In this document: positions 17,664 through 58,198 of the stretch, in pieces
Layout: every line of letters starts with the position of its first letter
How positions within the stretch are numbered: position 1 is the stretch's first letter
Assembly: GCF_026571515.1 (NCBI RefSeq)
Contig: NW_026857783.1
Span: forward strand, 50,878-114,877
Length of the DNA: 64,000 nucleotides
DNA from: Ruditapes philippinarum
Taxonomy: Eukaryota
Direction of reading: 5' to 3'
Translations under genes and position numbers: made by a program
Notes under the pieces: model-generated
The model's database searches: none
Told to the model about the DNA's origin: nothing
What the model saw: the letters and a program-made list of their open reading frames with translations, nothing else

Positions 17664-19058
17664 ATGGAAGTTTTACAGCTATTCTTTTATTTTAGGTGTG
17701 TTCTCATAGTGAAAGGACTTAACAACATGCTTACTAATGAATCGTTATCAAATTACAACAATTCAGATCTAGTGTCTACTTTGATAGCAGAACAAAGTCG
17801 AATCTGCCCTTATATTGCTTTGTGTCATGCATCAAACAGCTCTTCTTTTCAATTTGATAGATCTATGAGCAAATTACCGTGCTGCAAGGCATGTTCGTGT
17901 CAGGACACTTGTGTTCAAGAAGGTTCTTGTTGCCCGGATTATTTCAATGCAGAAGGTATAGATTTTAAGGAAAACCAGACATCACATGATAATAATAAAA
18001 AACCTGTTAGTGCCAGTGCTAACACGACGTTAACACATACACAAGAATGTGTTAAAGTACAACATGGTCGAATACAAAATCAAGACGGTTACATGATGGT
18101 AGCATCATGTCCACCCAACTTTGACGACATTGAAGTAAAAAGGAAGTGTGAAATGAAGATACATCATAGCAACCCCTTCGACATAATTGACAACGTCCCA
18201 GTAACATACGAAGATCAAAGACAAACATATAAAAATCAATACTGCGGACAATGTAACTTGCAAGAAGATGTATTTCCTACATTTTGGCATGTAACGCTCG
18301 TGTGTGATATACATTACTTTTCTTTCAAGTCCATTTCCGCGGTTAATCAATTTGAATTCATAGAGGCCGTTCTATTTACAATGCCTGGGAAGTGTAACGT
18401 AGTCTTTGAGTATGAAACTACAAATATCAGCTTAAATGCAGAACTTCGACAGTGTACATACGACACAATGATCGATAACTGCATCAAAGAACATTCGAAC
18501 ACCTTTCTTCAAACAATGTGCAAGAACTATTTCTGGACTATTACGGTGCAAGTCATTTCTGAAAGAAAAATATACAAAAACTATGCATGCCTGCTCTGTA
18601 ATGAAATAAGCTTCAGGGATAGATGTACAGTAAACCAAGAACTCAAACCAGTTGTTATTCAATTTACATCTATTTTGAACATCACTCGGAAACCATCAAC
18701 TTTCGTCGATACTTCGAAAGATGAACAACATATTATCAATCGTTATTTTCCAAACACAGACGGGGAAATTCGCTGCAAAAAAGGATTCGCACATGATATT
18801 AGAAAGGTATTGAAAATAAAAAAAGTTGTATCGAGTATGTCTTTGTACCCATTGCTTTATTCAACAAACACTTTTGTTATGATTATGAAAATACCCGGAA
18901 CTCCATTAAAGTATGCTATTTTACGTGGCGTCCTGAGTCAGGCTTATTGTTTTTCTCGTTTAGGGCACACGCTTTTTATTACTTGGGGACCTTACGCCGC
19001 TTTTCATGGAATGGCACGGAAGTGTCACATTGAAGGTTCCATGATAACCACCGTATGA
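17664..19058 (+). CDS. Uninterrupted 464-codon ORF for a cysteine-rich (27 Cys) protein with N-terminal hydrophobic leader and a somatomedin-B-like motif (CCKACSCQDTCVQEGSCCPDYF). Probably a large exon or single-exon gene for a secreted/extracellular domain
   Basis: It is the longest ORF in the window, and 1.4 kb without a stop is very unlikely by chance at ~66% AT. The C-x-C-x3-C-x5-CC-x-D-Y spacing matches the SMB domain pattern, with N-glycosylation sequons and a hydrophobic C-terminal stretch. Antisense ORFs 18105-18350 and 18432-18662 are spurious. True start and possible splice exits (e.g. AAAG|GTATTG near 18806) are unresolved. Confidence 0.5.
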   Translation: MEVLQLFFYFRCVLIVKGLNNMLTNESLSNYNNSDLVSTLIAEQSRICPYIALCHASNSSSFQFDRSMSKLPCCKACSCQDTCVQEGSCCPDYFNAEGIDFKENQTSHDNNKKPVSASANTTLTHTQECVKVQHGRIQNQDGYMMVASCPPNFDDIEVKRKCEMKIHHSNPFDIIDNVPVTYEDQRQTYKNQYCGQCNLQEDVFPTFWHVTLVCDIHYFSFKSISAVNQFEFIEAVLFTMPGKCNVVFEYETTNISLNAELRQCTYDTMIDNCIKEHSNTFLQTMCKNYFWTITVQVISERKIYKNYACLLCNEISFRDRCTVNQELKPVVIQFTSILNITRKPSTFVDTSKDEQHIINRYFPNTDGEIRCKKGFAHDIRKVLKIKKVVSSMSLYPLLYSTNTFVMIMKIPGTPLKYAILRGVLSQAYCFSRLGHTLFITWGPYAAFHGMARKCHIEGSMITTV

Positions 19059-22083: not shown

Positions 22084-23668
22084 AGTTATAACGCGTCTAA
22101 AGGCGTTATTATGCGAATCAAAAGGCAAAATTACGCGAAACAAAAGGTGTGATAACGCGAAAAAAAGCGTAACAACGGGAATAAAGGCGAAGTAACACGA
22201 ATATAGGCGTTATAACGCGAATCAAAAGGCATGCTTACGCGAATCAATGCGTAATAACGCGAATAATTGCATAGTAACAAATAAAGGCGTTATAACGCAA
22301 ATCAAAATGTGTATTAATGCGAATAAAAGCGTTATATCGCGACTCAAAAGGCGTAATAACGCGAATGAAAAGGCAAAGTAACGCGAATAAAAGCGTAATT
22401 ACGCAAATAAAGGTGTAAGTATGCGAAAAAGGACGGAGTTACGCGAATAAATGAGTAGTATCGCGAATAAGGGAGTTGTAAGGCGAACCAAAAGACGCAA
22501 TAACGCAAATTAAAACGCATTATAACGCCAATTTAATACCGTATTTATACTAATCAAATGGTCCAATAACGTGAGAAAGGAAGAACAATATTGATCTGAT
22601 TTTTTTGCTCAAGATATAAACTACTGTATAATAACATAATATACATTAATAATAAATATTATTCTATTTGCACAGTAATAATGTAAACTATTTGTCATAC
22701 ACTAATGAAGACTATGTGAGATTTGTCAATATAATGTGACATGGTGACTCATGGGTCCATTAGGCTCGAAATAAATACAGTTACTCTAAATTCACATGTA
22801 TCACATCATTGATTTTACACATGTCACTATTTTATATGTGGGTCATAATTATGTTATTATCTACGGATATGTCCTGTATAATAACCTAATAACCTGTAGT
22901 ATCTTCTCATTATGTGGTTGTCGCTCCTAATACAGTTAAAGGTAATAGGCTATAGGTAAGGAATTGGAAGAAACGTTAGGTATAAGTAAGTCACATAAGG
23001 AATGAAATTGTATCTTAATTATTGAAATGGTGATAATGTTTCGGTTAATTCAGTTAAAATCATAAGTCATAGGGGCCATTGTTTTCTTTGTCTTTGTAGA
23101 AAAGTATCGACTAGTTGGCTTTGAAGAAATGTATCTAATAGTTGGGTGATAGTTAATCACTTATTTGGTAAAAGTCTTTCCTAATAAGAGATTAATAATC
23201 AGACTGTGGTATTAGGACGTATCCGTGAAGAATTGAAAATAAAACGCAAATCTTGATCAATTCACTTAGATCAGCATTGTTCTTTCTTTTTTACATTACC
23301 AGGCAACTTATAATAATTTATATGGTATTGAATAAGTGTTATAACGCCTTTCGTTTTGCGTTATTTCGCATTATTTCGGTTCGCGTTATAACGATTTTAT
23401 GTTCGCGTTATAACGGCTTTGGTTTCGTGTTATAACGCCTTTTAATTCGCGTTATAGCGTCTTTTTTTTTTGCGTTATTTAGCCTTTTGATTCGCGTAAG
23501 TACGCCTTTCGATCAACGTTATAACGCTTTTGTATGCGTTATAACGCGTTAATACACCTTTTGATGCACGTTATTACGCTTTTTTGGTTCTCGTTAATAC
23601 ACCTTTTTTGCGTAACTACACCTTACGCCCTTATTTCGCGTTATTACTCCTATTTGCGTTATAACGTC
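22084..23668. repeat. Foldback-like structure: two inverted arrays of a ~15-bp minisatellite (22084-22540 forward; 23337-23668 reverse) around an ~800-bp spacer
   Basis: The forward arm is (aaaggcgttataacgcgaatc)n-like. The reverse arm is 'gcgttataacgcctttcgttttgcgttatttcgc...'. ORFs 23253-23435 and 23534-23941 are translations of the repeat. Confidence 0.85.
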
Positions 23669-23972
23669 ATGTGTCCTTTATACTTCATCCTTGCCGACGG
23701 GATATGTGTACCGCTATTCGCAAAACTACATAATGTGCATTACCTTATTTTACTGCAGGCAGATGTTGTATCTGCGTCGGGGAATTTCCACGACGAAGAA
23801 ATAGAAGTTGCTCTTCTAACAAGTGGGCTTGATAATATATTAAGTGAACAATTAGGTGATGCACTTTTAAAGTTCTCTATTTGGAAGGACGAGAATTCGC
23901 CTTTGAAGCGCCAGTTTTTTTGTAGTTATTACTGTAGCTGAAAATTGTGATAATGGAAGTTTTATAAACATT

Positions 23973-24716
23973 TTGAAATTTACACATGATATTATAAGAC
24001 ACAGTCATTATATCAATAAAGATATACAAGTATTGTTCAGCTTTAACTCTAAAGTAAGTTTAGAAGCTAACAGATTTAAACTGTCATTGAGTGGATTTCT
24101 AAGTCCTCTTCTAATTTCACGTACCAGTAAGCAGGTAAACATTAGTGACGAAATGGTAATGCCGTTATACATTTCACCATCATTTCTTTGCTTTAGGTTT
24201 ATGCTTAACATAAACGAAATAATAGAAGACTTTGGTTCATTAAGGTCATTTTACCTAAAAATGAAGGTGTCTAAAGTGAATTTTCAAGTTTCAAAAAATG
24301 GCGATTACTTCATGTGTTTACAAGAAGGCTTACAAAATGCCATCAGTGCAATGGATATATTTTCAAGAACTAACTCCTCAAATTATAAATTCATCTCAAA
24401 AACATCAGGAAAAATCCGAAATGATATATCACCAAAAGAAAGTAAAGAGAGAAGTGCAACTAATGATATCGATAAATCTCTAGTAGCAACTATTGCGACA
24501 GTTGCTATTGTTGCTTTTATTTTTATAATCAGACGTGTACTGAAACGACGTATGGCTGGACAAGTTGATACAAATCTTGTTGAATTTGCTAATGGTAGAA
24601 GTACTCAATGCACGGAATCGTTTGGTCTACCTTTGAGTGGGGAAAATGAGACTGCATTTAATGGTGGAGACTCGGCAGGAGCAGTGGTTAGACATGTAGA
24701 TGAAGAAAGACAATAA
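23973..24716 (+). CDS. Possible terminal exon encoding a membrane-proximal segment, one TM helix (LVATIATVAIVAFIFII), a basic stop-transfer (RRVLKRRM) and a ~60-aa cytoplasmic tail
   Basis: 247-codon ORF. A good acceptor (tttctttgctttag|g) lies near 24195 inside it. Whether it belongs with 17664-19058 (~5 kb upstream, same strand) cannot be decided from sequence. Confidence 0.3.
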   Translation: MKFTHDIIRHSHYINKDIQVLFSFNSKVSLEANRFKLSLSGFLSPLLISRTSKQVNISDEMVMPLYISPSFLCFRFMLNINEIIEDFGSLRSFYLKMKVSKVNFQVSKNGDYFMCLQEGLQNAISAMDIFSRTNSSNYKFISKTSGKIRNDISPKESKERSATNDIDKSLVATIATVAIVAFIFIIRRVLKRRMAGQVDTNLVEFANGRSTQCTESFGLPLSGENETAFNGGDSAGAVVRHVDEERQ

Positions 24717-27234: not shown

Positions 27235-29010
27235 TAGTTCAAAGTTCAAATTTTATTTACAAATCAGCATTTTGTTTTTGCCAATACATACAAAACATAT
27301 ACATACATAGATCTTGAAATATAGCACACATAACTACAAGATACATATATAAACATTTCAAATATCAGTATTAAATTAACAAATAACAAAGTAGTGTTAA
27401 TAATATATCATTAATTTCGTCTATTTATCATTTGTTCCATGGTATTAGATCGTAAATCAAAAGCTTTTTCCAAGTACTTACTTATCAGTAATAATCTATG
27501 TTTATTATTAGATGACTTGATATAATAAAACTTATTCAGTGTGGGAAAAGATGCATTACGAATAAAAAGTTTTCTTAATTCTGAATAAAATGGACAACAA
27601 AGCAGGAAATGATATTCTGATTCTATCATGTTTCGACTACAAAGTTTACATATTCTCTCATTTCTGTTTAAACCTATATATCTGCCAGTTTCAATTTCTA
27701 GAGAATGGAAACCAAGTCTGAAACATGTCAAACGTTTTCTTAACTTGTCATTTTGTATCAATTTAGATATTCCTCAAAACAAAAATTTGATTTGAAATTT
27801 CTAAAATAAAAGAGTTTTGGCATGTTATTTATTTGCTCATGCCAATTTTGTATAATTGATCTCTAAGGCGTTGTTTAAAAATTAAGCTAAAATCAGAAAT
27901 AACATTATAGTTATGTAACAAATATGAAAATCCTAACTCATTAATAATAGTATGAGCTTGCCTAGCTCAGCATTTATTAACACATTGATCTAAATACATG
28001 CTATATATAGGCGAATGCTGATTATTAACAATTTTATTCCAAATCTTTAATGATCTTTCTTTACACAAAATTGACAAAGGAAATTTACCAAGTTCTCCAT
28101 AGACAGCACAATTAGGAGTTTGTTTTTAACACCAAGTACATACTTATAAAATTTTATTTTCAGTTTATCAATATCTTTATATTTATAAATTCCCCATACA
28201 TCTGAACCATATAACAGAATTGGAGTTATCAGACTATCAAAAAGGTGCAGTTTAGTTTTAACATCTAGCTTTATCTTGTCAAAAATACCCAATAGACTGT
28301 TATATGCTCTAAGGCCTTGCTCTGCAAGAGTCTTAGTTGCTTCAGAAAAGCTACCCGTATAAGAAAATTTTACACCTAAATATGAAAAATTATCAACAAT
28401 ATCTACAAACTGACCGTCAATATTTATACTAAAATTATGTACAGATTTTCTTCTTTCAAAAACACAAACTTTAGTTTTATTAACATTAATTTTAAGCCCC
28501 TATTTTGACGAATAACTATATACATTATCAACTTGAGCTTGCAAGCTCTCTGGACTTGTAGTGAAAAGCACGATATCGTCTGCAAAAAGTAGCAAATATT
28601 TAGACAAGAATTCAAGGTCACTATTCGACATTTTGTTAAGATCTATACATTTTTCAATATCATAAAAAAAGAATAAATAGCAGGGGAGATAATGGCTCTC
28701 CTTGCTTTAACCCAAGAGTTACGTCGAAAAATACTGACATATTCATAAAAGCATTAATTTTTACACATGACACTACTAAGACAAATATATTGCCTTTAAC
28801 ATATTTATCATTTTACAACTAATACCAGTATCTAACAGCTTAATCCATAACGCATCTCTTATAACTGTGTCAAAAGCCTTTTCATAATCAATGAAAATAC
28901 AATAGAGTTTAGAATTTTTGCTAAAACTTTCTGAATTATGGAATGAAGAATAAAAATAGCATCAGAGGTTGATCTCGAATCTCTAAAACCAAGCTGAATA
29001 TATAGTGATA
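27235..29010 (-). mobile_element. 5'-truncated CR1/L2-like LINE fragment (RT plus C-terminal zinc-knuckle), inserted into paralogous block B
   Basis: Minus-strand ORFs give RT motifs: 'SRSTSDAIFILHSIIQKVLAK' (28859-29080), 'LFDSLITPILLYGSDVWG' (28047-28292), and the tail 'LTCFRLGFHSLEIETGRYIGLNRNERICKLCSRNMIESEYHFLLCCPFYSELRKLF' (27411-27761). The 3' end on plus coordinates (27250-27330) carries an (atacata)-type microsatellite, as CR1-like elements do. The flanks 27040-27235 and 29010-29420 are contiguous in block A. Confidence 0.85.
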
Positions 29011-29714
29011 AAGTATTTGGTATGGAAGTCAACATACTATTTTGTTTACATTTTGCTACTTTTATGACAATTAATAACACTTAAAGTGTTACTTCTGCAG
29101 GTGAAATGCATATAACATGCTCTAAAACCGTTACTAGTATTTAAACATAACAAAACTCGTTTTTACTATTCTAAAGAATGAAAAATGTATTCCTTTCTGA
29201 GGCAAAAAGTGCCTTTAATAAAACAGAAATGAACGATACGATATACACTTTAATCTTTAATAAACTCTCCAAAATAGATAAAATTAAGCAGATGATTTAC
29301 TGTAAGATGCTATAAATCTTCGTTTGATTTCCAAACGAACGCGTGGTGTAGTAATTATACTGTCTGACCTCAAATCATAGGGCTGCAAGTATTTTTCTCT
29401 TCTACTTCACTTTAAATAACAAATATTTTAACTTTGTTGGTTTGCCGTGAAACCAAACAAACAAATTCAAATAATGTGATTTGTTCAATTAGTGATTACC
29501 TTCTTTATTTGTGAGAAGAAGCGCTCAATGAGTACGTTACCAGATGTGAGTATGGTGATCAGTGAATATTGTTCACAGGTTGAGTAGTTTGCATATGATG
29601 AGTATTATTCACTTTTTAACATTGTTTATGATGCAAAAAATGTTCAATCCATCATGTATATGTGGTGACGTTAAGTCACGGAAAGACAAGTGTTCAGTGA
29701 GCTTTTTCGTGAAA

Positions 29715-29931
29715 TGAGCTGCGTCATGACAAAACCAACATAGTGCGTTTGCGACCAGCATGGATCCAGACAAGCCTGCGCATCCACGCAGTCCGATCAG
29801 GATCCAAGCTGTTCGCTATCAGTCTCTCTACATGTAATGGGGTTGGTAAACGAACAGCATGGATCTTGATCAGACTGCGGGATCCATGCTGGTCGCAAAC
29901 GCACTATGTTGGTTTTGTCGTGACGCGGCTG
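29715..29931. mobile_element. Hairpin MITE, complete copy
   Basis: 'tgagctgcgtcatgacaaaaccaacatagtgcgtttgcgaccagcatggatccagac...' folds back on its rc '...ggatccatgctggtcgcaaacgcactatgttggttttgtcgtgacgcggctga', with arms ~100 bp. Both flanks read 'gaaatg'. ORF 29743-29967 is spurious. Confidence 0.85.
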
Positions 29932-30154
29932 AAATGCAGTTGTTTGTTGCAGCAGATACAGAAATAATGGCATTGCAGCAGAAACAACAAGTTCTTAACG
30001 CTGAGTATTGGAACTTGAAACTTGTAAACTTGTAGTCAGACAGCGTTTACAACTGCACGACAGCGTCAGAGTTGATCTTTGATGTTTGTTTATAATGAAT
30101 ATCACATTAATTTTCAACAGATTAGTTTAAATTTTAAAAGCTAAAAAGTTGATC

Positions 30155-30675
30155 TCTCCAGTACTGTGGCATAGAGGTGACATTGTCAATTTTATTTTAT
30201 CTCGTGGCCACGACTTATTATCTTGAGGCCTCAAGATATTATATCGTGACCACGACTTATTATCTCATGGCCACGACTTATTATCTCAAAATATTATCTC
30301 GTGGCCACGAGTTACTATCTTGTGGCCACGAGATAGTAAGTCGTGGTCACAAGATAATAAGTCGTGGCCACAATATAATAAGTCATGGCTACGAGATAAT
30401 TATGTCGTGGCCACGAGATAATAAGTCGTGGCCATAAGATAATAACTCGTGGCCACGAGATAATATCTTGAGGCCACAAGATAATAAGTCGTGGCCTCAA
30501 GATAATTACTCGTGGCCACAAGATAATAAGTCGTGGCCACGAGATAATAACTCGTGGCCACTAGATTATAAGTCGTGGCCACGAGATAATATCTGGAGGC
30601 CACAAGATAATAAGTCGTGGCCACGAGATAAAATATAACTGCAAATGTCACCTCTATGCCACCGTACTCCAGGGG
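30155..30675. mobile_element. Palindromic-minisatellite foldback/MITE: ~30-bp TIRs around a self-complementary array of 22-bp units
   Basis: TIRs are 'tctccagtactgtggcatagaggtgacatt' and 'aatgtcacctctatgccaccgtactccagg'. Inside, (tcgtggccacgacttattatc)n switches to its rc (gtcgtggccacgagataataa)n at a symmetry centre near 30335-30345, so the whole ~520 bp is one long hairpin. ORFs 30177-30693 on both strands (LVATTYYLVA..) are spurious. Confidence 0.85.
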
Positions 30676-32029
30676 CTCTCTTTTTACTGTCATTTCGTAA
30701 GTATTTTTGTATCTTTACGCGTACCTTTAAACTTCATAAAATCATAAGTGTATTCCACAAAACGTTTACTTTAGTTTTTTCTTAAATTTACGTTAAAATA
30801 GTTCGTAATCTTCAATGCAGGTTTTAAGAATTATTCAATAAGTGGCATTTTTGAAATATTTGATAAAATAAACTGTTCTATTAGACAATCAAACTTTATC
30901 AAACTAAACTTTAATATCGTAAGGTCATCTACGGACACCGAAGAATGTCACTGAGCCATTCGTATTTTTAGCGCCTGCTGTACCATCGGCCATCCATTAC
31001 ACAATGGGTTCTCTCGATTTCAAATAATGTATGCATAGAGTGGTAAAAAGAACCAATAGCTTTTATATTTTGAAAATATTTAGGGGATATTTATGGTGGC
31101 TGATTTGTGCCATTCGTTTTTTCGCCTGCGTTTCCGCCATGGAAAAGTAAAAATGGCGGGGCGCGGAGCGAAAACACGCTAATCAATCGGAACATCCTTG
31201 GCTATTATCTATAAATAACCTCAGAAACAATACGGATTGAAAGTAGTTCTACCACGTATAATAATGTACTGTTTGCTTTTGTGTCTATGAATTCACTTAT
31301 TTTAGGTGGACTTCTAATACATATTTTGAAAATCAATTTGTCAATAACTCCCATCATTAAAATAATATTTGTTTACATGCGTAGGTAAGACCAAAATACC
31401 GCATCCGTTCTTTGTATTAATTCATACCATTGTGTTCGAGGTCCTTAATCGAAGAATGACGAAAAGGGCCGAAAATTTGCGATTTCACTTAAATAAGTGC
31501 GCACGCGGGGGAGATTAAAACATTCACCGTCGCCTCACGGAGCGAAAAGCAACTAATGTGATGTAGATATTCAAAAAGCTATATCAATAAATAAATACCC
31601 TTGAAATCAACTAAAAAGTACTACCTGCAAATATTGTTTATAGTTAACTTTTTAGTATTTGGAAAAATTGAACTTTTGGAAGCATCAGTGATCATTGTCA
31701 ACAATCTCATCTAAAATAATACTATATATATATATATATATATATCCAGAATACGAACCAAATACAACGATCCGTTAGCGGCGCATTTTTATACGAACGA
31801 CCACACAGTAAATGATTTTTCAATAATGGGGCTTGAAAAGCTATACGGGAATGAACAATACAGAAAAACAATAGAAAATTTGTGGAAAAATAAATTAAGA
31901 ACCTATAGACCGTATGGAGTTAATACAAAAGAATAACGCGGCAGACGGCAACCAACGCCACGGCGGGCGTCGTTCATTGACGTTACGTCACTTCCATTGT
32001 TTTGTTTTGATATATTTGTATATAGGGTT

Positions 32030-34055: not shown

Positions 34056-34367
34056 CTCTTGTCTGATACGCATCGGGAACCAGTCGGTTGAAAACAAATT
34101 GGTTCTCTTTTAAAAATTTATCGACTGCTGGCGTAGTAACATTAAAAATGTGTTTAGCAAGAATATATGTAATTTTGTAAAAGAAGGATTGAAATTCTAG
34201 TAGTTAATTGGTCAGTAAGTTTTAAAGTAGAAAGGGTAATTGTGTTTCCCTGAATATCATGACAAAGTATTGGACCTATTTTGCCTAATGTAGTCGAGAT
34301 GTGTTAAAACCAAATCATAATTCCATTGGGTCACTCGCTTGCGCTAGACGCCCCAAAACGGATAACA

Positions 34368-34698
34368 ATGCAAAAATCGAGTGTCTATGTTGCATTGCTC
34401 AGTGTTTCTATTTTGCTTATTGGAAGCGGAATTTTAGTGTATCTACTGTCAAATAAGAATAACACATGCCAATGTAATATTCCAGACAGGTGTTTTATTA
34501 ATGCGACGACAAATTCCCTTGAGCAGACGACAAATTCTCGTGATCAGACAACAAATTCTCAGAATCTCACGTTACCTACTTTCACGACGAATTTTCAAAA
34601 AATCACTTCTGCTGTAACTACGCCGAAGGAATCAGTGCATGTTGGAACAAGTTTGGCGACAACTTCGTCTCCACTTAACACAACAACAGAAATACCAG
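34368..34698 (+). CDS. C-type lectin gene, exon 1: short cytoplasmic N-terminus, signal-anchor TM (VYVALLSVSILLIGSGILVYLL) and a Thr/Ser/Asn-rich stalk
   Basis: ATG at 34368 inside ORF 34326-34739. Weak donor CCAG|GTTTGA gives phase 1, which joins exactly to exon 2. The stalk has three (Q)TTNS(R/Q) repeats. Confidence 0.6.
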
Positions 34699-35190
34699 GT
34701 TTGAAGTTTAGCATTTTATTATTCCATAGATTAATTTAAAAAGTCAGCACGGCTATAGATCTGTTGCATAAAGTATTATAATTCCTCGCATCCCAACTCC
34801 AAACAGTGGTTTTATTTAGCGATAAAATCACTGTTTTGGATGTATAATTTCTTTAACACTAGAACGGTACATATATAGTTAAATATAATCGTAAATCTTG
34901 CACTGGTAATGTTAAACCTAGTCGGATTTTTCTATTTCATGTCTACATTATTTTAATTCAACCAGATGTTTTTGGTTATTTTGAGTCTATTAATATGGCT
35001 CAGTAACTAACAATAATAATCTAATTTGTAATAGGGGCCTTTCTTAATAAATATAGTAAATATTTATAAGTACGTATTTTACAAGCTGAAACATGACGTA
35101 AGTTTAATGTTAAACGTCATTTTTATGCAAATAAAGGGTCTTATACTTAAAAAGAAAGTGTCGTCTGCATACATTATATTCTCATTATAG

Positions 35191-35270
35191 ATTGTCCTGA
35201 TAACTGGATTTCATATGAAAAGTCATGTTTTTTCATCAGTAACCAATCGGCGAGCTGGATAGATGCTATG
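35191..35270 (+). CDS. C-type lectin gene, exon 2: start of the CTLD (DCPDNWISYEKSCFFISNQSASWIDAM)
   Basis: Acceptor ttatag|AT, donor ATG|GTAAGTG, phase 1 in and phase 0 out. It carries the canonical CPxxW..Y...CY.FS....W..A motif. Confidence 0.8.
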
Positions 35271-38200
35271 GTAAGTGAAACAATGTGATCATTTTCAAAT
35301 TAAAGCTGCATGCCTCCAGATTCATGCTAATTTTCATGAAAATTGTGAGAAAGTATTTCGTACAAATATTGCAATCGGCACTTATAATTCAAGCAAATTA
35401 CCAGAAAGGTCAAAATATGCAAAAATAGCCCTTACTGCGTTAAACGCAGTAGAAATATAGTAATAAATACTGCAAACTTTGTCTTTAAACGGACGAAACA
35501 TTTAAACTGAAACACAAATCTTGACTCTTTTTACCTTTCATAAAGCAGCGCGCCTCCAGATTCATGTTAATTTTCACGAAATGTTGGACATGTATTTAAA
35601 AAGTAAAATATTGTGAAGTGATCAAAGAAAGTAATTTACACATTACAAACAGCTTTTTGAATCCACGCAAATTATCAAAAAGTGGTCAACATGTGCAAAC
35701 ACAGCCCTTACTGCGTTAGTAACGCTGTAAATATATGGTGATAAAATACTGCAAAATCAGTCTTAAACCGCACATTACATGTCAAATACAACTTGTTACT
35801 GGAATGTTTTTACCTCTTAAAATTCTAGTATATTTTCTTCATTATTGGTTATCTTGAAATATTTTGGCTAATCTGGAGGCGTGCAGCTTTAAAATCTTAG
35901 TACATTTTTATTATGTTTGCATGTTTTGATATATTTTGGCTCTTCTCAAGACATGCAGCTTTAATATAATATAGTCATTATAATAACAGATCAGTGGGTC
36001 ATTAAAGGTTAAAGAGCATGCTTTAAAGACTGTCTGTCTTTTGTGAGCTATAAAAAAGGGTAAATAATTCCTTTCCTCCCATGGTATTTATGTCTTCCCT
36101 GTAATAAGAGTTATAAGCAGTTACATGAAAATCATTGATGCAAAAAAATCATTGATGCAAAGCATCAAATGCGACGCCAAGAAATATTTGATCAAGACTT
36201 GCACCTAAATACTTAACAGAGGAGGTGTACTTTATATTGATCATAACCATTACATGTGACCTGGAGGATAGGACCCTGTTTAAAGATGCGTCAAATATAA
36301 CCAATCACTAAAATTCTCATGCCAAAAGAGAAAATTTCTTCAGATTTATTTTACCAGATACAAGGATAACTGAGTCATTATCATATAATAAAATATTGCT
36401 TAGGGTTACAGAAATACCATTGACAAATATTAGACATAAAAGAGGACCTAAAATAAACCTCCTTGGAGACACCATAGGTACTCGGAGATCTAAGTGCCTT
36501 TATACTGCTGTGAATGGGACCCAAAGGTAAATAACCATTCGCAAATTAAAGAATACATGGTTGATCATTATAATGAAGGGAAATGTTCCTTCTATTTTGT
36601 ACAAGAAGGAAATAATTTTATTAAAATGATAAAAACCATGTTATCTTCAACACATCAAATACTTTTTGAAATTTATTTCAAACAAGTACTATCGTTTGTT
36701 AAATGCTAGTACGAGAAGATAATCTATTTCAGACTTCTCTTGCAGAGCTGTATAACCGTGGAATTAATTACTACGCGATGTTTCATGTTTTCTTTTTAAA
36801 AACAGGTTTTAAATCTAAGGAGTCAATTTGAATATTTCAGTCCACTTTTACCCAACTTATCTGCATTTCTTCTACAACAGTACATACATGTACTGCATGG
36901 AATATCTTCTAAAACTTCCACAGATAAATACCTATATATAAATGGCATATCTCCTAATCTATTACTATCGTGGTCTGAAGTTTAAACTTCACTTTGAACA
37001 CTCCTTCTTTCTTCTTTTAAGATACATGTATGTATGTTTTTGAAGTGTTTCATTTTTCTTTTCTTTTCTTTTTTAAAAAATAATTTACTAACTGTAGGGA
37101 AACCTCTTTAAAATTTGCATTATTCACAAGAAATGGTATTTTTACTTTCCTTGCTATTTAGGAGTACTTTGAAAGGCGGAAGTCTTTGAAGTCTAAAGTA
37201 TTCCTTTTACACTTAAATGTTGATTCTTGTTTTAGTATGATATGACAATGCCTGGGTAGAATCTAATCTTATCAAGCTGTTTATTGGAAGGACTGAGGAT
37301 GTGCTTGTATAACACCCTATGGCAAATTACACCATAAACATTTTGGAAAGTCATAAATTACATAAACTACTAGCAAAACTGTTTAAGATACACACGGCTC
37401 ATCAAATTATTTTATGATTTCTAGAAAGAAACAGAATCTTTTTTATCCTACCATTAACATATATAGCATATATGTCCTAGTCAGTCTCAGTTTGAGAATT
37501 AAGGATTATCAAATATTGTAATTTAAAAAAATAAAGAAACAACTATTAATTATTAGAAAAGAACAGATCATCCTTTTATTTGTAAATAGTACATCATTAT
37601 ATTCCATAGACCATACAATTTCCAAGCAAATAATGATCATACTATTTGTCTCTAAAAATATCGTAAACTATTTGTACTTTATTCATAAAAAGAGTAGATC
37701 AACAAATTCGTAAAATCAGTTAAAATATTTACTACTGTCCATTTAGTATTTCAAATTATTTACCTGGTTATTATAATAACACCAATAAAATATTTCTATT
37801 TCTATCATTTTCAACATAAATCTTATAATGAGGTTAAATTGATAGAAATTATTAATTTTACAAAGTACAAAAAGTAAAAATAATAAATTAATTATTAAAT
37901 TTATAAAATGCTATTTAAAACATTCCTTAATTAAACGGCCACATTCGCTGCCGCAGCAGCGAGTATTTGTGGGTGTGACTAATCAGTGATGTAAAACTGT
38001 TAGGTCTGTTATAAACCCTGAACTATAAATAGCATGCAGTGTTAACCTGGAACAAAAACAGCTGATTTTACACAGGAGAGGTTTAATGGATGTTTTAATA
38101 TAATTTTTGAAGTCATTTTTTCTTCTTTTTTTTTCACTGGAATGCTGTATGTTTTCATCAAGTCAGACAATTATATCAAAATCCAAAAGATGTGCCTTAC

Positions 38201-40435
38201 ATAGGGCATATTTTTTAGGAAAAACCTGCTAAAAATGTTCTTGACAGGAATTTAAAATATTTTTAAACTGTTATGTATAAAAAATTTTGTGCATATGCAA
38301 CATTTAGTTTGATTAACATTTGTGAAATGTAATTTTTGACTACAAGATATTTACAACAAAATATAGTGTAAATGAAATATACCTGGAAGTTACTTTTACT
38401 GTTTTCGTGAAGTTAAAACCATTCAAATACAAATTAAATCAGTACTTTGAAATTTAGAAAACAAATCATAGCTTAATGGATTATTGTAAATTTGTTGGAT
38501 TTGATAAAGCAAGTCATTAAAAGTTATTGTTTTTTTCTTATTATTCAGCATTCCAATTTGTCGTCTGCTCAAAATCTCCCTCCTTGAAATATACATCGTC
38601 TGCTACAAATCTCTCTCCCTGAAATAAACACAGCCACGTGCTTCTGTTTACTACTGAAGGTTCATGATCTGTAATGATCACATGGCTCCTCCCAGGGAAA
38701 TTCAAATTTCAAATTTGACAACCAGTATTTTTTCCAGAAATACACTTAACAAAGTTATAGTTTGAATAATTTGGGCAATCTTTCAAAAATATCTATGCCT
38801 ACAAACATGCCAAGTGTTGTTTTAATGCATTTGGTAATTAATCTTAAATCTTTGAAAAAGGGTCCCTGAAGTGAAGCATGCATAAAATTAATAAGAAACC
38901 TGCCCTAGCGCCATCTGCTGGCTTTTATAGTCCAGTTGGGCCTTTAAATTAAAGGTAATGCTATACAAACTGAAAGATTGTCCAATACATAAATGGTCTA
39001 CTGCACTAGGAGTGAACTTCAAAGTGCACTTAATGTACACATTGAAGTGCACTAGAAGTGCACATGTAGTGCACACCAAGTGCACTTGGTGTAACCTTTG
39101 GTGTTAACTCAACTGTACCTTAGATTGACAGAAAAGAACTAACAATTTAGTAAACATGGGTTACTTCCCCTTAAAATAGAGAAAACCAGCTGAGACCTTA
39201 AAGTACACCCTAAACAGCAAAATAATAAAATGTTGCAGGCTCAGTTTGATTAAAAGTAATGGTAAAAAGAATTCATAAAAAGTTAGAAGGCCATGTGACA
39301 ACAGTAGAATTACATTGCAGAAAACCAGATAGCTTTCAACATCCGGATACTGGTACACTTTGTAAAAACAATCATTATGTGCAATAGATAAACGTGATAT
39401 GGATTAAATTCAATAGAATAATCGTTTTCAACAGTTCCATTGCGAATCCTTATACTCATTTGAATATGAACGTTCTTCTTGCAGAAAAATTCTAACCGTA
39501 TATAGAACGAAACAATAAACAATGCATAATTAACAAAAATGATTAAACAGTGTAATCTATAAAATAAAAACAAAACAACTTAACCTGAGTTAAATAACAA
39601 AATTGAATACATCATATAGGCCACAACGATATTCGGAATCCGGCTTTAACTATTCGCGACAAGCTGTAAAACTGAGTCTGTCATTTTATGAAAAAAAATA
39701 TCCAAATGCATATGCTTTTTACATAAAGTTATTAAATACAAATATAACACCATATTTGTTTAATTGATTTTTCAAAATCAAAATGAAACTAATTAAGACA
39801 ACATGCCATTAACTGCTAATAATAACAGCTCCTACCATGTGCAAAAAAAAAAACGCAAACAAAAAACAAACAAAAAACATTCCATAAGAAACGACGCCGC
39901 TCACCGGCGTCGCCAATAAGCAGAACACAACTTCCAGTTCCGGTCGTTCACGTTTCACGATAATTATCAATTTTCCCGAAATGGAAATCTAATTGATTCC
40001 AATCTATTTCCCTGCCATTGGATTCTTTGCGATGTCATGATTTCGGATGGTTTATTATACTTGATTGATAAATAATTAAAATAGCGTAAATTAGTAAATT
40101 TTGTATAAGAGCTGGCTTTTAGGCTTTGCAAAATTCATATTAACTAGCTAGAAGAGCAGGTTTGAAGTGTCTGCTCGTATAGCGAGCATAGCGGTAACAA
40201 AAGTAGCGTCCAAACTTTGATGGTTTTGAAAAAATTGGCCGGAAGTTCACTTCACTTTGGACAGAAGCTCTTCTATCTGGAGATCCATTTTTACAAATCT
40301 TAAGGAAATAAAAATTAAGCTTTCACATTTTGATTCTTAGCGAGTGGAGGTCTTTGTAAAAAAATACACGTACTTAAAGTGTATTGTTTTCAGAGATTTA
40401 CCTTATTCGTATGATTTAAAACATGTTTGTTCCAG

Positions 40436-40541
40436 ATCCGATGTCAAAAACTGAACGGTCATCTTGTAGAAATTACATCTGCTGACGAAGATCAGTTTCT
40501 GAAATACCATATTGAAACACTTGACAGACAAAATAGTAGAG
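40436..40541 (+). CDS. C-type lectin gene, exon 3: CTLD middle (IRCQKLNGHLVEITSADEDQFLKYHIETLDRQNSR)
   Basis: Acceptor tgtttgttccag|ATC at phase 0. Canonical 'C...GA.L..I.S..E..FL' motif. Donor AGAG|GTAAAA gives phase 1. Confidence 0.8.
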
Positions 40542-41879
40542 GTAAAAATTATTTATATGCCACATTGGTTTTAGTAAATTTTAATATGATCAAAGAGCGG
40601 CTGCAATATATACATTGCGAAGCCAGTGATTATTTTTTAACTTTGATATGAGATTTAAGGATTTTCTACTTTCGGCACTTTCTATGGAAGCACCGGAAGG
40701 GACGTGCATCATACGCTTAAATCTACGCGAACGCTGTGCTAACAGAGTAATTCAAGTTTATATCGTTTATTGCCTAGTTAGACTTGAATTACTTACCATA
40801 AATATTGTTGCATATGTTGTCATCGCTCATATTATGAGTAATATACACGAAATTGTTTTTTTTTTAAATTCAATCGATAAAATCTAGTATTTTAAATGTG
40901 AACTCGAAAAAAGAATAAATTATTATAATTGAGTATTATAAATGATCAAAAAGGCGTAAATGATAGGCTTTTACAGAGAGATCTGTAAAGCCAAACTAAA
41001 TAAAGAATAATATCAAAGTGTACAATGCATGTGTTTGTTACGTCAAAATCGAGTTCATTTCTTCCATTTATGTACTCATCTCTATAAGGCGTTTATTTAC
41101 AGCACGATATTTTTATAAATAAAAGGAGGTTTTAATTTGAAAAGCCTTTTAATATGATTATTACAAACTATATATGATGTCACAGCATTATTGCATAACC
41201 GCTTACGGCCGGAAAGAATATGCGGGAGGGGGCGTTAAGGGAAAAAAACACATACGGACTAGCAAAAATAGACTTACTCCGAAATAAGAACATTTTGGTG
41301 TTTTCCCAGCTAATCCGTAGGTACAAACACAATTTTACAGTAACAGTCTCGAAAATAAGTTAATCTATTGTGAATGGTAGTTTAACACGGGGGATGAGCT
41401 GGTACACGTTGGAGTTCTTATGATAACTTGTCAGGGGTTCTTGTGATAACTGTCACGGGGTTCGTCGGAAAATTTTTGTAAATACTACAAAACACCCGTC
41501 AAAATGCTTAATTTCATCTTTAATATGCGAGTGGTAAATTAAACTTTAATAATTAAGGTCTCTTGTCATCTTGTATGTGTCAAAAACTAATTCATAGTCC
41601 TTTTACATCGCCTCCAGTTTAAAATCTGGTAGTTTTTAGTAAAATTTCCTAACTATTTGCCAATTTGAATGTAATGAGTATGCATCCTTGCCATACATAA
41701 TTACCTAATTATAATGCAAAATTGCATACATAAAGCCCCGACTAACACATTTATGCCCGATTTTTCAAATGTCCTGGAGTTCTTGTGATAACTCTGAAGC
41801 TGTCCTAAAGTTCATTTCTTGCGCTAAATCAGGGCGCGTTTTAGCGTTTGTTATAAAAATGTTGAATATATTAAATTTC

Positions 41880-42020
41880 AAAAGTTACCAAATTTAAAAA
41901 GTAACCCAATTTCAATAGTTACCACATTTCAAAGGTAACCAAATCTGAATAGTAACCAAAATTAATAAGTTCATTTCAACAATTACAAAGCTCAAATAGT
42001 AACCAAATCCTGGTAATATT
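41880..42020. repeat. ~20-bp minisatellite (agt[t]accaaattt[c]aa, ~7 copies) ending 4 bp before the kringle exon acceptor
   Basis: aaaagttaccaaatttaaa / aagtaacccaatttcaat / agttaccacatttcaaa / ggtaaccaaatctgaat / agtaaccaaaattaat ... / agtaaccaaatcctggtaatatttcag|. Confidence 0.7.
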
Positions 42021-42024
42021 TCAG

Positions 42025-42276
42025 AATGCTTCAGTGCCTATTCAAAACAATATAGTGGCACTACAACTACGACGTACGACGGACACACGTGCCAGCGATG
42101 GGATTCACAAACTCCCCACACACATACACGAACTCAACCCATCAGGTTTCCAGAGAGATCTGTGACAGATGCTGCCAACTATTGTAGAGATCCCGACGGC
42201 TTAGGGTTACCATGGTGTTACACAACAGACCCCAAAATTAGGTGGCAGTATTGTGGCATTTACGAGTGTCCGGGTG
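42025..42276 (+). CDS. Complete kringle-domain exon (phase 1-1) inside the last CTLD intron
   Basis: With one base carried in it translates, with no stops, to 'ECFSAYSKQYSGTTTTTYDGHTCQRWDSQTPHTHTRTQPIRFPERSVTDAANYCRDPDGLGLPWCYTTDPKIRWQYCGIYECPG'. That is the kringle signature with all 6 Cys (CQ.W, NYCR[DN]PD, PWCYT, W.YC). Acceptor tttcag|AA, donor GGTG|GTAAGT. Confidence 0.7.
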
Positions 42277-42950
42277 GTAAGTGGCTGTTAGATAATATTC
42301 TCTAACAAATGAAATTGAGACAGTGAAACTTGGAAGAAAAACCCAAGAGAAATAAATGTTACATGAACTCGAACTTGACGTCATTCTAATATAGTTTATA
42401 CGCTATAATCATTTTAACTTTACATAGTATCGCAGAAATTTTTCTGCGCGGCAATATTTTGTCACAATTTTCTGCAATTATATCGCAAAAAGTTCAAAAG
42501 TTTCAATTGAAAAAAATATGTACCATCGAAATCGTCAAACATTTATTTCTCATTCTTGTGTACAAAAGATCTTTATTAAATGCATCTCGTACTCTATCTA
42601 GTTTCGTTTTCAATTTCAGGATTTAAAAAAGGTCATTTAAACTCCTTTTTGTATTTGATGTAAAAAAAACTGTCAAAATGTCCGAAAAAGGTGGTGTGAA
42701 GTAAGGAGGTCATTGTACATTGTTGAGATCATAAAATATATATACACAGTTGCAAAACCTATATCAGACTCGAGTTGCGTCTCGTCCAATGTAGGTTTAA
42801 CAGCTGTGTAATCATCCAATAGAATTCAGTATTGTACTCAACACTATAAATTTACGTCATGATATTATGTCTAATATCGTACAAGAACGCATCATACATG
42901 AAGGCATGATACCTTTTTATCAATCTTTAAAAACGTTTGTTTCCTTCCAG

Positions 42951-43159
42951 GGAACTACTGGGCCGGAATGGTCATGCTGGAAGATGTCTGGAAATGGATC
43001 CACACGGAGACTGAACTTGATCAAGGTTACACTAACTGGTATCATGACCTAAACTGGGAATATTGCGGGTCATTGATTTCGGAGGTAAACTATCAATGGA
43101 AGAGAAGCGAATGTACACATACGGCAATGTACATTTGCGAACAGACGAAATATACATAA
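42951..43159 (+). CDS. C-type lectin gene, terminal exon: CTLD C-terminal half (..NYWAGMVMLEDVWKWIHTETELDQGYTNWYHDLNWEYCGSLISEVNYQWKRSECTHTAMYICEQTKYT*)
   Basis: Strong acceptor ttccttccag|GG at phase 1. It contains WIGL-like, W.W.DG-like, 'NW....EYC' and 'W....C....YICE' CTLD hallmarks and ends at TAA 43157-43159. The overlapping ORF 42867-43052 is the wrong frame. Confidence 0.8.
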
Positions 43160-49149: not shown

Positions 49150-49525
49150 ATGAAACAGAAATGTATGTCTCTACAAGTAATATTCCTGCTAAACACAGAT
49201 CCGCTCTGGCTAAATTCAGATGCGGTGTTGCGCCTATACGTTTAGAAACGGGGCGATATGAAAATATGTCTGTTAATGCTAGACTGTCCTATTTGTAAAA
49301 ATGCAGTTGAAACGGAAAACCATGTCTTATTAGAATGTTCTACATATGAAACAATAAGAAGGAGTTTATATGAAGAAGCTGTTAAAATTAATCATAACTT
49401 TCACGGATGGAATGATGATCACAAATTTGAATTTGTTCTATCTTATCACGATATTGTAAGAGAAAGTGTCAAAGCCTGTTTCTCAATATTAAATATGAGA
49501 TCGAACCTTCTGTACAGTTAGTTTT
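49150..49525 (+). pseudogene. LINE (CR1/L2-like) ORF2 C-terminal fragment, frameshifted
   Basis: 'RSALAKFRCGVAPIRLETGRYENMS' then, after a +1 shift, 'CPICKNAVETENHVLLECSTYETIRRSLY', the conserved C..C..E.E.H.LL.C..Y...R tail also seen at 27411-27761 (-) and 51579-51788 (-). Confidence 0.75.
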
Positions 49526-49689: not shown

Positions 49690-50445
49690 ATACATTCATT
49701 TTCTTACTTAGTCACGCCCCTTACAATTATTTTCATGGTCATGCCATGTAGATCTATTTTTCTTACTTTTCATAGACTGTACATCCATATTCTTACACGG
49801 TCACCTTCTTTACAAAGATGTACTTGGTCACGTCCTGTACATCTATGTTCTTACTTGTAATATCCTATACATTTATGTTCTTACATTGCCACGTCCCTTA
49901 CAAACATGCGCTTGGTCACGTCCTGTACATATATATTCTTACCTGTAATGTCCTATACATTTATGTTCTTACATGGCCACGTCCCTTACAAACATGTACT
50001 TGGTCACGTCCTGTACATCTATGTTCTTACTTGTAATATCCTATACATTTATGTTCTTACATTGCCATGTCCCTTACAAACATGCGCTTGGTCACGTCCT
50101 GTACATCTATGTTCTTACTTGTAATATCCAATACATTTATGTTCTTACATTGCCATGTCCCTTACAAACATGCGCTTGGTCACGTCCTGTACATCTATGT
50201 TCTTACTTGTAATATCCTATACATTTATGTTCTTACATTGCCATGTCCCTTACAAACATGCGCTTGGTCACGTCAAGTACATTTATATTCTTACTTGTAA
50301 TATCCAATACATTTATGTTCTTACATGGTCACGTCTCTTACAAGCATGTACTTGGTCACGTCCTGTACACATATATATTCTAACCTGTAATGTCCTATAC
50401 ATTTATGTTCTTACAGGGTCACGACTCTTAAAAACATATAATATA
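49690..50445. repeat. 88-bp satellite (~8.5 copies), with an extra diverged ~1.3 copies at 51950-52065
   Basis: Unit 'cacgtcccttacaaacatg[ct][ga]cttggtcacgtcctgtacatctatgttcttacttgtaatatcctatacatttatgttcttacattgc'. ORFs 49818-50592, five overlapping, are spurious. Confidence 0.9.
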
Positions 50446-51039
50446 TTCATACTTAATTTTTGTCTCATTCGTATATACATTTTTATACATATTTACACAT
50501 ATTCACATAAAATCTGCATACGACCATTCTATTTAAGAATTTCAAGAGACATTATATCAATGATAAACATATTCAAGACCTATTACAGTTAGACTAAAAT
50601 CAAATAGTTAAATTACAATGTATTTAAACAAAATATTAAAAGTAAGGTAACCATCGCTAATCGAAAAATGAAAACTGCTAAGAAATTGAAAATTGTAAAT
50701 CGGAGCCCTAACGCGCCTATAAAAACGTTTTAAAAGATCGATTATCATCCAAGATAAGATCTTGCATGGCCTGATTAGCGAGGATTACCTTAACCTTGGT
50801 AAAATACATTATCATGTTTAAAGCAAATATAATGGCATTATTTACAAGAGAATAAAAGACGACGTTGTAGAATGTTAAAACATGTTTTGGCACAATAACG
50901 TATCATTTCAGTTTTAGTGAACAGAAAAATTAATTGTTCATTTTTAGACATTTGTACAAATACATTATCTACCGTTTTGGCTTCATCAAATAATGATTTT
51001 CGCAAGTCATCGTACACAAAGCAATCAAGAATGACATTA

Positions 51040-57832: not shown

Positions 57833-58198
57833 TTGCGTCACAGAAACTTCATTTTTCAACGAATCGACATCGCGTTAGTTCTTGCTAATTGCTATCAGAT
57901 AAGAACCATTGTCTCAGAACCCAACAAACATGAATATTACAAGATACCATTGGGGTTTGCGATAGGCTCAATATGTTCACAGATTTTGTTTACGATACTG
58001 ATGGTCATTACTTGGCAATCAGATAAAAGGTCAATCGACTCTCAAGGCAATATAAAAAAGGCTGAAAGTTTGATAGGCAAGGTCTCGCAATTCATTGCCA
58101 TGCTTTTAGTTCTATTTATTGTCATTTCAAACATTGTTGTTGTAGAATTTGGGGCTATGACCAGCAATAATAAAGGAAATAAAACTGACTCAAGTTGA
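57833..58198 (+). CDS. Possible exon/ORF encoding two hydrophobic helices (IPLGFAIGSICSQILFTILMVITW; VSQFIAMLLVLFIVISNIVVVEF)
   Basis: 121-codon ORF with TM-like segments. There is no recognisable family and it overlaps the antisense ORF 57623-57859. Weak. Confidence 0.15.
   Translation: MRHRNFIFQRIDIALVLANCYQIRTIVSEPNKHEYYKIPLGFAIGSICSQILFTILMVITWQSDKRSIDSQGNIKKAESLIGKVSQFIAMLLVLFIVISNIVVVEFGAMTSNNKGNKTDSS

Follow-up and report, generated by a model that had tools for sequence, protein, structure and literature searches.

A kringle exon inside a CTLD (C-type lectin-like domain) gene of the Manila clam Ruditapes philippinarum

CTLDs (C-type lectin-like domains) and kringles are both disulfide-rich folds of extracellular proteins. 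A gene that encodes both is present in a stretch of 64,000 nucleotides of the clam Ruditapes philippinarum (NCBI RefSeq assembly GCF_026571515.1, contig NW_026857783.1, positions 50,878 to 114,877 of the forward strand), which is AT-rich (about 32% G+C) and is referred to below as the window; positions are those of the window. We consider it very probable that this is an intact five-exon gene, in which a complete kringle is nested in the loop between helix α2 and strand β2 of the CTLD as a normal coding exon, and that the arrangement arose by a single insertion followed by gene duplication. An earlier note, made from the letters of the sequence, had described a CTLD gene with a kringle module of uncertain use lying in its last intron. 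It had offered three explanations: an optional cassette inserted into the long-loop region of the CTLD, an intermediate of exon shuffling, or an exon that belongs to a different gene. RefSeq includes the kringle exon in its gene model, every detectable relative has it at the corresponding position and phase, it is spliced into the cDNAs of relatives and it is under purifying selection; the view of it as a module of uncertain use is not upheld.

The gene and its product

The exon coordinates, splice sites and compatible phases claimed in the earlier note were all reproduced (Table 1): every acceptor is preceded by AG and every donor is followed by GT, and reconstruction of the splicing of the five exons (331, 80, 106, 252 and 209 nt) gives cumulative phases of 1, 0, 1, 1 and 0. 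The borders of the kringle exon read tttcag/AATGCT at the acceptor and CGGGTG/gtaagt at the donor. The reading frame is open in both splice versions, the four-exon version encoding 241 aa and the five-exon version, which includes the kringle, 325 aa. The 325-aa product is identical from end to end to the RefSeq protein XP_060597098.1 of R. philippinarum, annotated as “apolipoprotein(a)-like”. Thus, the gene and its kringle-in-CTLD product are already publicly annotated, under a name that hides the architecture. The 241-aa form, from which the kringle has been skipped, is absent from a collection of about 15 billion proteins.

Searches of the conceptual translations with Pfam profiles matched both families above their cut-offs. 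The kringle exon alone matched Kringle (PF00051) over the full length of the profile (positions 1–79 of 79; E = 5e-23, 81.6 bits, cut-off 34.3), so the intact six-Cys kringle in a phase 1-1 exon stands as described, with its motifs NYCRDPD and PWCYT and with all six Cys invariant across the family. The 241-aa product matched Lectin_C (PF00059) over positions 2–107 of 107 (E = 3.5e-13, 50.7 bits, cut-off 22.6), and the 325-aa product matched the same profile with 31 bits, in two stretches. All Cys of the long form of the CTLD are present (C112, C124, C140, C295, C311 and C319); across the family C140 is near-invariant, C295, C311 and C319 are invariant, and W260 and G262 of the YWAGM motif are conserved. 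The product is therefore predicted, from the profiles and from the structural model described below, to contain a CTLD fold as one domain together with a kringle fold.

In the 325-aa product the Pfam scan found only Kringle, Lectin_C and a sub-threshold match to UL45; it did not find the layout of plasminogen or apolipoprotein(a), i.e., tandem kringles followed by a trypsin-like protease, with a PAN domain in addition in plasminogen. The window kringle is a canonical six-Cys kringle of class 1-1, 42–49% identical to those of plasminogen and apolipoprotein(a), and it keeps most of the lysine-site positions. The protein differs from plasminogen, apolipoprotein(a), HGF and ROR1/2 in having no protease, PAN, Frizzled or kinase domain, and for that reason the labels “apolipoprotein(a)-like” and “plasminogen-like” given in RefSeq mislead. 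The name of the window product reflects only the best BLAST partner of its kringle.

The nested fold

A profile of the family from which the kringle had been deleted matches 233 CTLD sequences in the PDB, and aligns end to end with solved CTLDs, without a gap at the point of deletion (e.g., ASGR1, 1dv8, E 7.5e-19; PLA2R; DEC-205). The AlphaFold2 (AF2) model used was computed from a hand-assembled alignment of 48 sequences, comprising the family together with kringle-only and CTLD-only homologues; the family alignment of 11 sequences on its own gave an unusable model, with a predicted local distance difference test score (pLDDT) of 41. With the 48 sequences, pLDDT was about 90 for the N-terminal part of the CTLD (CTLD-N), about 95 for the kringle, and mostly 75–88 for the C-terminal part (CTLD-C). 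The model has a helix at residues 3–31 and a disordered stalk at residues 33–101. Foldseek alignments to CTLDs span 214–223 columns for targets of 121–134 residues, and those to kringles have TMt values of up to 0.85.

Assignment of secondary structure to this model by DSSP placed α2 at residues 153–169, the kringle at 173–256 and β2 at 259–266, with the long-loop region at about 267–293. As the long loop comes after β2, the insertion lies in the α2–β2 loop, directly before the WIGL-type strand, and not in the long-loop region where the earlier note had put it. A disulfide bond joins the first Cys of a kringle to its last. In the window protein this pair is C174 and C254, 1–2 residues from the ends of the exon, which brings the termini of the insert next to each other, and the loop can therefore hold a kringle. 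The two halves of the CTLD would thus fold into a single CTLD, from which the kringle would project outward as a nested domain.

The family and its conservation

Both PF00059 and PF00051 occur in 12 or more relatives from R. philippinarum and Mercenaria mercenaria, and in the alignment their kringles all occupy one position. The site common to the family is after the α2 segment (DEDQFLK...NSR) and immediately ahead of the WIGL-type strand (NYWAGM). The R. philippinarum paralogue P0003 is 81–88% identical to the window protein (81% by BLAST, with full coverage), and a search with the 325-aa product found the further paralogues P0004, P0005, P0002, P0007 and P0015. The relatives in Mercenaria are P0008 and P0009, which are 46–47% identical with 99% coverage, and P0010.

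The Mercenaria CTLD genes, a comparison that the earlier note had proposed, have the kringle exon at the same position and in the same phase. For the window gene, P0008 and P0009, respectively, exon 1 has 331, 403 and 409 nt, exon 3 has 106, 97 and 97 nt, and exon 5 has 209, 200 and 209 nt; exon 2 has 80 nt and the kringle exon 252 nt in all three, and the phases are 1, 0, 1 and 1. The split CTLD of P0010 has the same exon layout, including the 80-nt exon and the 252-nt kringle exon. P0008 and P0009 lie side by side in tandem on Mercenaria chromosome CM038771.1, at a distance of about 12 kb. The P0010 locus (L005; CM038771.1, 38,775,805–38,795,969) is roughly 6.4 Mb from them, and within this one gene there are both an ordinary four-exon CTLD and a kringle-split CTLD.

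The kringle-split CTLD family appears to be narrow. An exhaustive HMMER search with the last exon (1.84 billion representatives) gave seven hits: the top four belong to the kringle-split family, and the other three comprise a fragment and a pair of multi-CTLD proteins. The fragment, P0053, was rejected as a kringle-less relative, being the open reading frame (ORF) of the last exon. The CTLD without its kringle, and the profile made from it, gave very few hits in word-indexed searches and no close kringle-less relative, a result limited to sequences that share 5-mers and not a proof of absence. The nearest kringle-less CTLDs that were found are only 25–34% identical (e.g., P0054 of Mya arenaria, in which the CTLD is in a single exon). 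A second copy of the family within the window was also rejected, as tblastn gave chance matches only (E 0.5–8).

A comparison of ten members shows conservation to be highest in the kringle, with a mean pairwise identity of 0.70 and 38 of 84 columns invariant; the corresponding values for the two CTLD halves are 0.58 (11 of 62 columns) and 0.51 (16 of 69). Ratios of nonsynonymous to synonymous substitution (dN/dS) were estimated by the method of Nei and Gojobori (NG86), for which only two within-genus pairs with unsaturated dS were usable: Mercenaria P0008/P0009, and the window gene versus a cDNA of a paralogue (contig L002, see below). For these pairs, respectively, dN/dS was 0.20 and 0.29 in the kringle, 0.15 and 0.29 in CTLD-N, 0.19 and 0.26 in CTLD-C, and 0.28 and 0.69 in the anchor and stalk (residues 1–110). 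As judged from these ratios, the kringle and CTLD folds are both maintained by purifying selection.

Among the paralogues in R. philippinarum there are also damaged models, many of them on small scaffolds. P0021 stops after the kringle and lacks CTLD-C, the kringle of P0052 is frameshifted, P0002 and P0007 lack the N-terminal part, and P0051 is likewise among the truncated or damaged models. This suggests either rapid birth-and-death turnover or fragmentation of the assembly.

Transcripts of relatives

Two assembled contigs from the Logan collection represent cDNAs of the family. Contig L003 (SRR22411491, encoding P0019) is 1428 nt long, intron-less, and has a full ORF of 296 aa with untranslated regions. 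Contig L002 (SRR12737788) is 1352 nt long, intron-less, and 97% identical to R. philippinarum LOC132719211. Both run uninterrupted through CTLD-N, kringle and CTLD-C, where the genomic copies carry introns of 0.5–5 kb. Therefore, in relatives of the window gene the kringle is spliced between the CTLD halves in vivo.

The number of kringles varies at LOC132719211. Its isoform X2 (P0004, 441 aa) has two nearly identical kringles and X3 (P0062, 371 aa) has the second of these only; apart from the exact loss of one 84-aa kringle exon and a 14-aa insertion elsewhere, the two isoforms are identical. The L002 cDNA from this gene has a single kringle, which could reflect skipping, an allele, or collapse of the repeat in assembly. 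Thus, kringle exons in this family can be duplicated and skipped, and no known product of the family, whether annotated isoform or cDNA, lacks a kringle altogether. In L002 at about nt 510–540 an in-frame stop replaces the conserved Trp of CTLD-N (FST*LDAM), and its kringle resembles kringle 1 except at the C-terminal end, where it has the CTG of kringle 2; the allele could be a null, or these features could come from an error in sequencing or from collapse of the duplicated exon during assembly.

Origin of the nested exon

Upstream of its kringle-split CTLD, P0010 has a CTLD of the ordinary kind, with a phase-0 intron (LEAQ/NYC) and a phase-1 intron (RGLK/EQLHWLGL) at positions homologous to the introns on either side of exon 3 in the split CTLD. 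Thus, the phase-1 intron ahead of the WIGL strand exists without a kringle in it. Suitable donor exons also exist, as the Mercenaria multi-kringle gene P0024 has one exon per kringle, and its internal kringle exon (255 nt) is of phase 1-1.

Most likely, judging from the shared features of these sequences, there was one ancient insertion, which is the simplest reading. In an ancestor of the venerid clams, a class 1-1 kringle encoded by one exon of a “plasminogen-like” gene with multiple kringles would have entered the pre-existing phase-1 intron of a three-exon CTLD, once, before Ruditapes and Mercenaria separated. The gene would later have spread by duplication, and in one paralogue the kringle exon itself would have been duplicated in tandem. 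The earlier suggestion of exon shuffling is thereby retained, except that the gene is better described as a fixed, old product than as an intermediate, one that pre-dates the Ruditapes/Mercenaria split.

The N-terminus, the ligand sites and the likely function

The relatives begin with an N-terminal tail of about 35–55 aa (M[ED]ET..[DE]Y.[LV]L), followed by a hydrophobic anchor, membrane-proximal Cys residues and a Ser/Thr-rich stalk; by analogy, this is the layout of type II lectin-like receptors. The motif of the tail (an acidic stretch with YxxL) resembles endocytic or hemITAM-like signals. The window copy, like P0003, begins just before the anchor: only five residues precede its 22-residue hydrophobic segment (residues 6–27), and there are in-frame stops upstream of the ATG at 34368 (34128–34367). 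The full-length paralogue P0061 (XP_060590989.1) has kept the tail and has a transmembrane segment almost identical to that of the window copy. Thus, the type II signal-anchor proposed earlier is plausible from the sequence, the alternative being a cleaved signal peptide and secretion, and the cytoplasmic tail carried by relatives has been lost. The length of the stalk seems to vary among paralogues by gain and loss of repeats: P0003 lacks 16 aa at the repeat in the stalk-coding region (Table 1), and the stalk of P0021 is a hugely expanded Ser/Thr repeat.

The systems with which the protein can be compared are the type II C-type lectin-like receptors of CTLD groups II and V (asialoglycoprotein receptor, MGL, CD23, DC-SIGN, NKp80, LLT1), from which it differs in having a whole kringle in the α2–β2 loop, a short long loop, no Ca2+/sugar motifs and no cytoplasmic tail. 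At Ca2+ site 2 the window protein has HDL and WKR, the Mercenaria relatives have EPS or EPL with WN or WK, and P0019 has EPS with WSD. As HDL and WKR replace EPS and WN/WSD and the long loop is short, Ca2+-dependent binding of sugars is unlikely and, judged by these motifs, the window product should be called a CTLD protein, not a lectin. Kringles that bind lysine (the K1, K2 and K4 type of plasminogen) have an anionic pair at 55/57, cationic residues at 35/71 and aromatic ones at 62/64/72. Of these, every member of the family retains R35, D55, W62, Y64, R71 and W72. Eight of ten members have Glu at position 57, and the window protein and P0003 have Leu there, so that the window kringle has apparently lost one acidic residue of its lysine pocket. 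The product is probably, with lower confidence, a cell-surface receptor-like protein with two binding modules. Because the Ca2+/sugar motifs, the pocket Glu and the cytoplasmic tail have been lost, it would be a derived member of the family for which protein ligands are likelier than sugars.

A CTLD and a kringle can bind each other, as in tetranectin (CLEC3B) and kringle 4 of plasminogen (PMC13466976). That pairing is in trans, between two proteins, whereas in the clam product both folds are nested in one chain; the relevance of the pairing to the clam protein, including any contact in cis, is speculative.

Weighing the alternatives

The gene could make both a plain 241-aa CTLD protein and the 325-aa kringle protein in meaningful amounts. 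The kringle exon is symmetric, its removal leaves an intact product that has the better Lectin_C score (50.7 versus 31 bits) and aligns without gaps to solved CTLDs, and at LOC132719211 precise removal of a kringle exon distinguishes two isoforms and the cDNA contig has a single kringle. However, the skipped form is missing from the protein collection searched, no kringle-less protein near the family was found with the kringle-deleted CTLD, its profile or the last exon, none of the annotated isoforms or cDNAs is without a kringle, conservation within the protein peaks in the kringle, and the donor of the kringle exon is strong (gtaagt). The symmetric exon needed for the optional cassette suggested earlier is upheld, no skipped product of the window gene is on record, and we regard substantial production of both forms as unlikely. 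That the kringle belongs to a foreign or overlapping gene, joined to the CTLD exons only by gene prediction, is essentially refuted already. The name “apolipoprotein(a)-like” does show that the RefSeq model was named from the kringle match alone, but tblastn across the 64 kb of the window detected neither a further kringle exon nor a further CTLD exon, the neighbouring coding regions on the + strand end at about 24.7 kb and begin at about 57.8 kb, the exon order is conserved in four Mercenaria and Ruditapes loci, and the exons are contiguous on two cDNA contigs.

Somewhat less probable than the production of both forms is that the window gene is a decaying duplicate, i.e., a recent, eroding copy in a fast-duplicating family, with an ORF that is open only because it is young. 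The upstream in-frame stops where relatives encode a tail of about 35 aa with a conserved acidic-YxxL motif, Leu at pocket position 57 (shared with P0003, against Glu in eight other members), the replacement of EPS and WN/WSD by HDL and WKR, and the fragmentary or frameshifted models elsewhere in the genome (P0052, P0021 without its C-terminal half, P0002, P0007) would all fit such a history. Against it, the reading frame is uninterrupted through the five exons, every splice site fits the consensus and the six Cys of the kringle and six of the CTLD are retained; dN/dS relative to the paralogue cDNA is 0.26–0.29 in the three domain segments, compared with 0.69 in the stalk; and P0003 has the same derived features, which implies that the derived form was itself duplicated and kept.

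Several points weigh against an intact, maintained gene of single origin with a nested kringle. No transcript was found for the window copy itself, and the grounds for inclusion of the exon in that copy are the RefSeq (Gnomon) model and the analogy of its relatives. Synonymous divergence between the genera is near saturation, leaving the two within-genus pairs for dN/dS, and relaxed constraint could be another reason for the derived losses of this copy (tail, Glu57, EPS/WN motifs). The single origin is argued from parsimony (shared position, phase and length). The AF2 alignment of 48 sequences was assembled by hand, and the model has low confidence at residues 276–285.

Features of the window

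The coordinates of the gene and of other features of the window are collected in Table 1. The ORFs at 17664–19058 and 23534–24716 probably belong to one upstream membrane-protein gene, to which no family could be assigned.

Table 1. Features of the window
Feature	Position	Strand	Description
Exon 1	34368..34698	+	ATG, hydrophobic anchor, Ser/Thr/Asn-rich stalk; residues 1–110 and base 1 of codon 111; ends in phase 1
Predicted signal-anchor/transmembrane segment	34383..34448	+	VYVALLSVSILLIGSGILVYLL, residues 6–27; from the sequence, the AF2 helix (3–31) and alignment with the transmembrane segment of relatives
Tandem repeat in stalk-coding part	34505..34560	+	21 nt × 2.7; TTNS[LR][ED]Q units
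Exon 2	35191..35270	+	CTLD β1 and start of α1 (DCPDNWISYEKSCFFISNQSASWIDAM); 80 nt, ends in phase 0
Exon 3	40436..40541	+	CTLD, end of α1 to α2 (IRCQKLNGHLVEITSADEDQFLKYHIETLDRQNSR); 106 nt, ends in phase 1
Intronic tandem repeat	41873..41970		17/34-nt repeat AAATTTCAAAAGTAACC, about 5 copies, about 55 nt upstream of the kringle exon acceptor
Exon 4	42025..42276	+	Complete kringle, residues 173–256, Cys 174/195/226/237/249/254; 252 nt, symmetric phase 1-1
Exon 5	42951..43159	+	CTLD β2 (YWAGMVML, WIGL-type strand), shortened long-loop region, β3–β5, TAA stop
ORF	17664..19058	+	464 aa, Cys-rich, signal-peptide-like start; sub-threshold Somatomedin_B match only
ORFs	23534..24716	+	End in a transmembrane-like segment, then a basic stretch
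Retroelement remnant-like	27411..29080	-	This and 49258..49521: weak zf-RVT match, short ORFs resembling reverse-transcriptase tails
Repeated blocks	29743..30693		Tandemly repeated, ORF-forming
Retroelement remnant-like	49258..49521	+	See 27411..29080
Repeated blocks	49818..50592		Tandemly repeated, ORF-forming
ORF	57833..58198	+	Clear Ninjurin domain (PF04923, E 8e-12); a ninjurin-like gene situated downstream probably has its exon here

Relation to known proteins and significance

No description of a kringle nested within a CTLD was found in the literature searched, and the earlier view that such an architecture would be unusual is confirmed, with the addition that relatives share the arrangement. 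A study of 13 R. philippinarum “mannose receptor” genes names KR as one of the domains occurring with CLECT and does not describe nesting (PMC12321717); its supplements contain no accession that ties its KR-containing protein to the kringle-split family. Kringles do not come up in a survey of the CTL genes of bivalves (PMC10140915). The amphioxus protein P0043 (Sushi-Kringle-CTLD) shares the presence of a kringle and a CTLD in one extracellular protein, but was rejected as a nested member, as its kringle precedes a complete CTLD, i.e., the two are in tandem.

To our knowledge, the kringles of plasminogen, apolipoprotein(a), HGF and ROR1/2 are in tandem or between domains, and never within another domain. 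Nesting is familiar from the split PH domains of PLC-γ and syntrophin, in which a complete domain sits in a surface loop and the host domain re-forms from its halves. Those are intracellular signalling proteins, whereas the clam case involves extracellular disulfide-rich modules, with the insertion exactly at a phase-1 intron.

Exon shuffling normally puts class 1-1 modules between domains. Here, such a module sits inside a folded domain, at an intron that splits that domain, and it has been kept, duplicated and expressed (as seen in cDNA from relatives). The supporting set is unusually complete: the empty phase-1 intron in a sister CTLD, the single-exon 1-1 kringles that could serve as donors, and a duplicated insert with annotated skipping. 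The locus is thus a clean natural example of how a nested extracellular domain architecture arises, and a CTLD loop that tolerates an insert of 84 residues may interest protein engineers. The finding neither opens nor settles a major biological question.

There is a slim chance that the nested kringle is a regulated module of variable copy number (0, 1 or 2, by skipping or duplication) that acts together with the CTLD, as a counterpart in cis of the tetranectin–kringle 4 pair. If true, venerid clams would possess diversified surface receptors with two binding sites, of a class that had not been recognised before. At the level of annotation, the analysis corrects misleading automatic names for a clam-specific family of lectin-like receptors.

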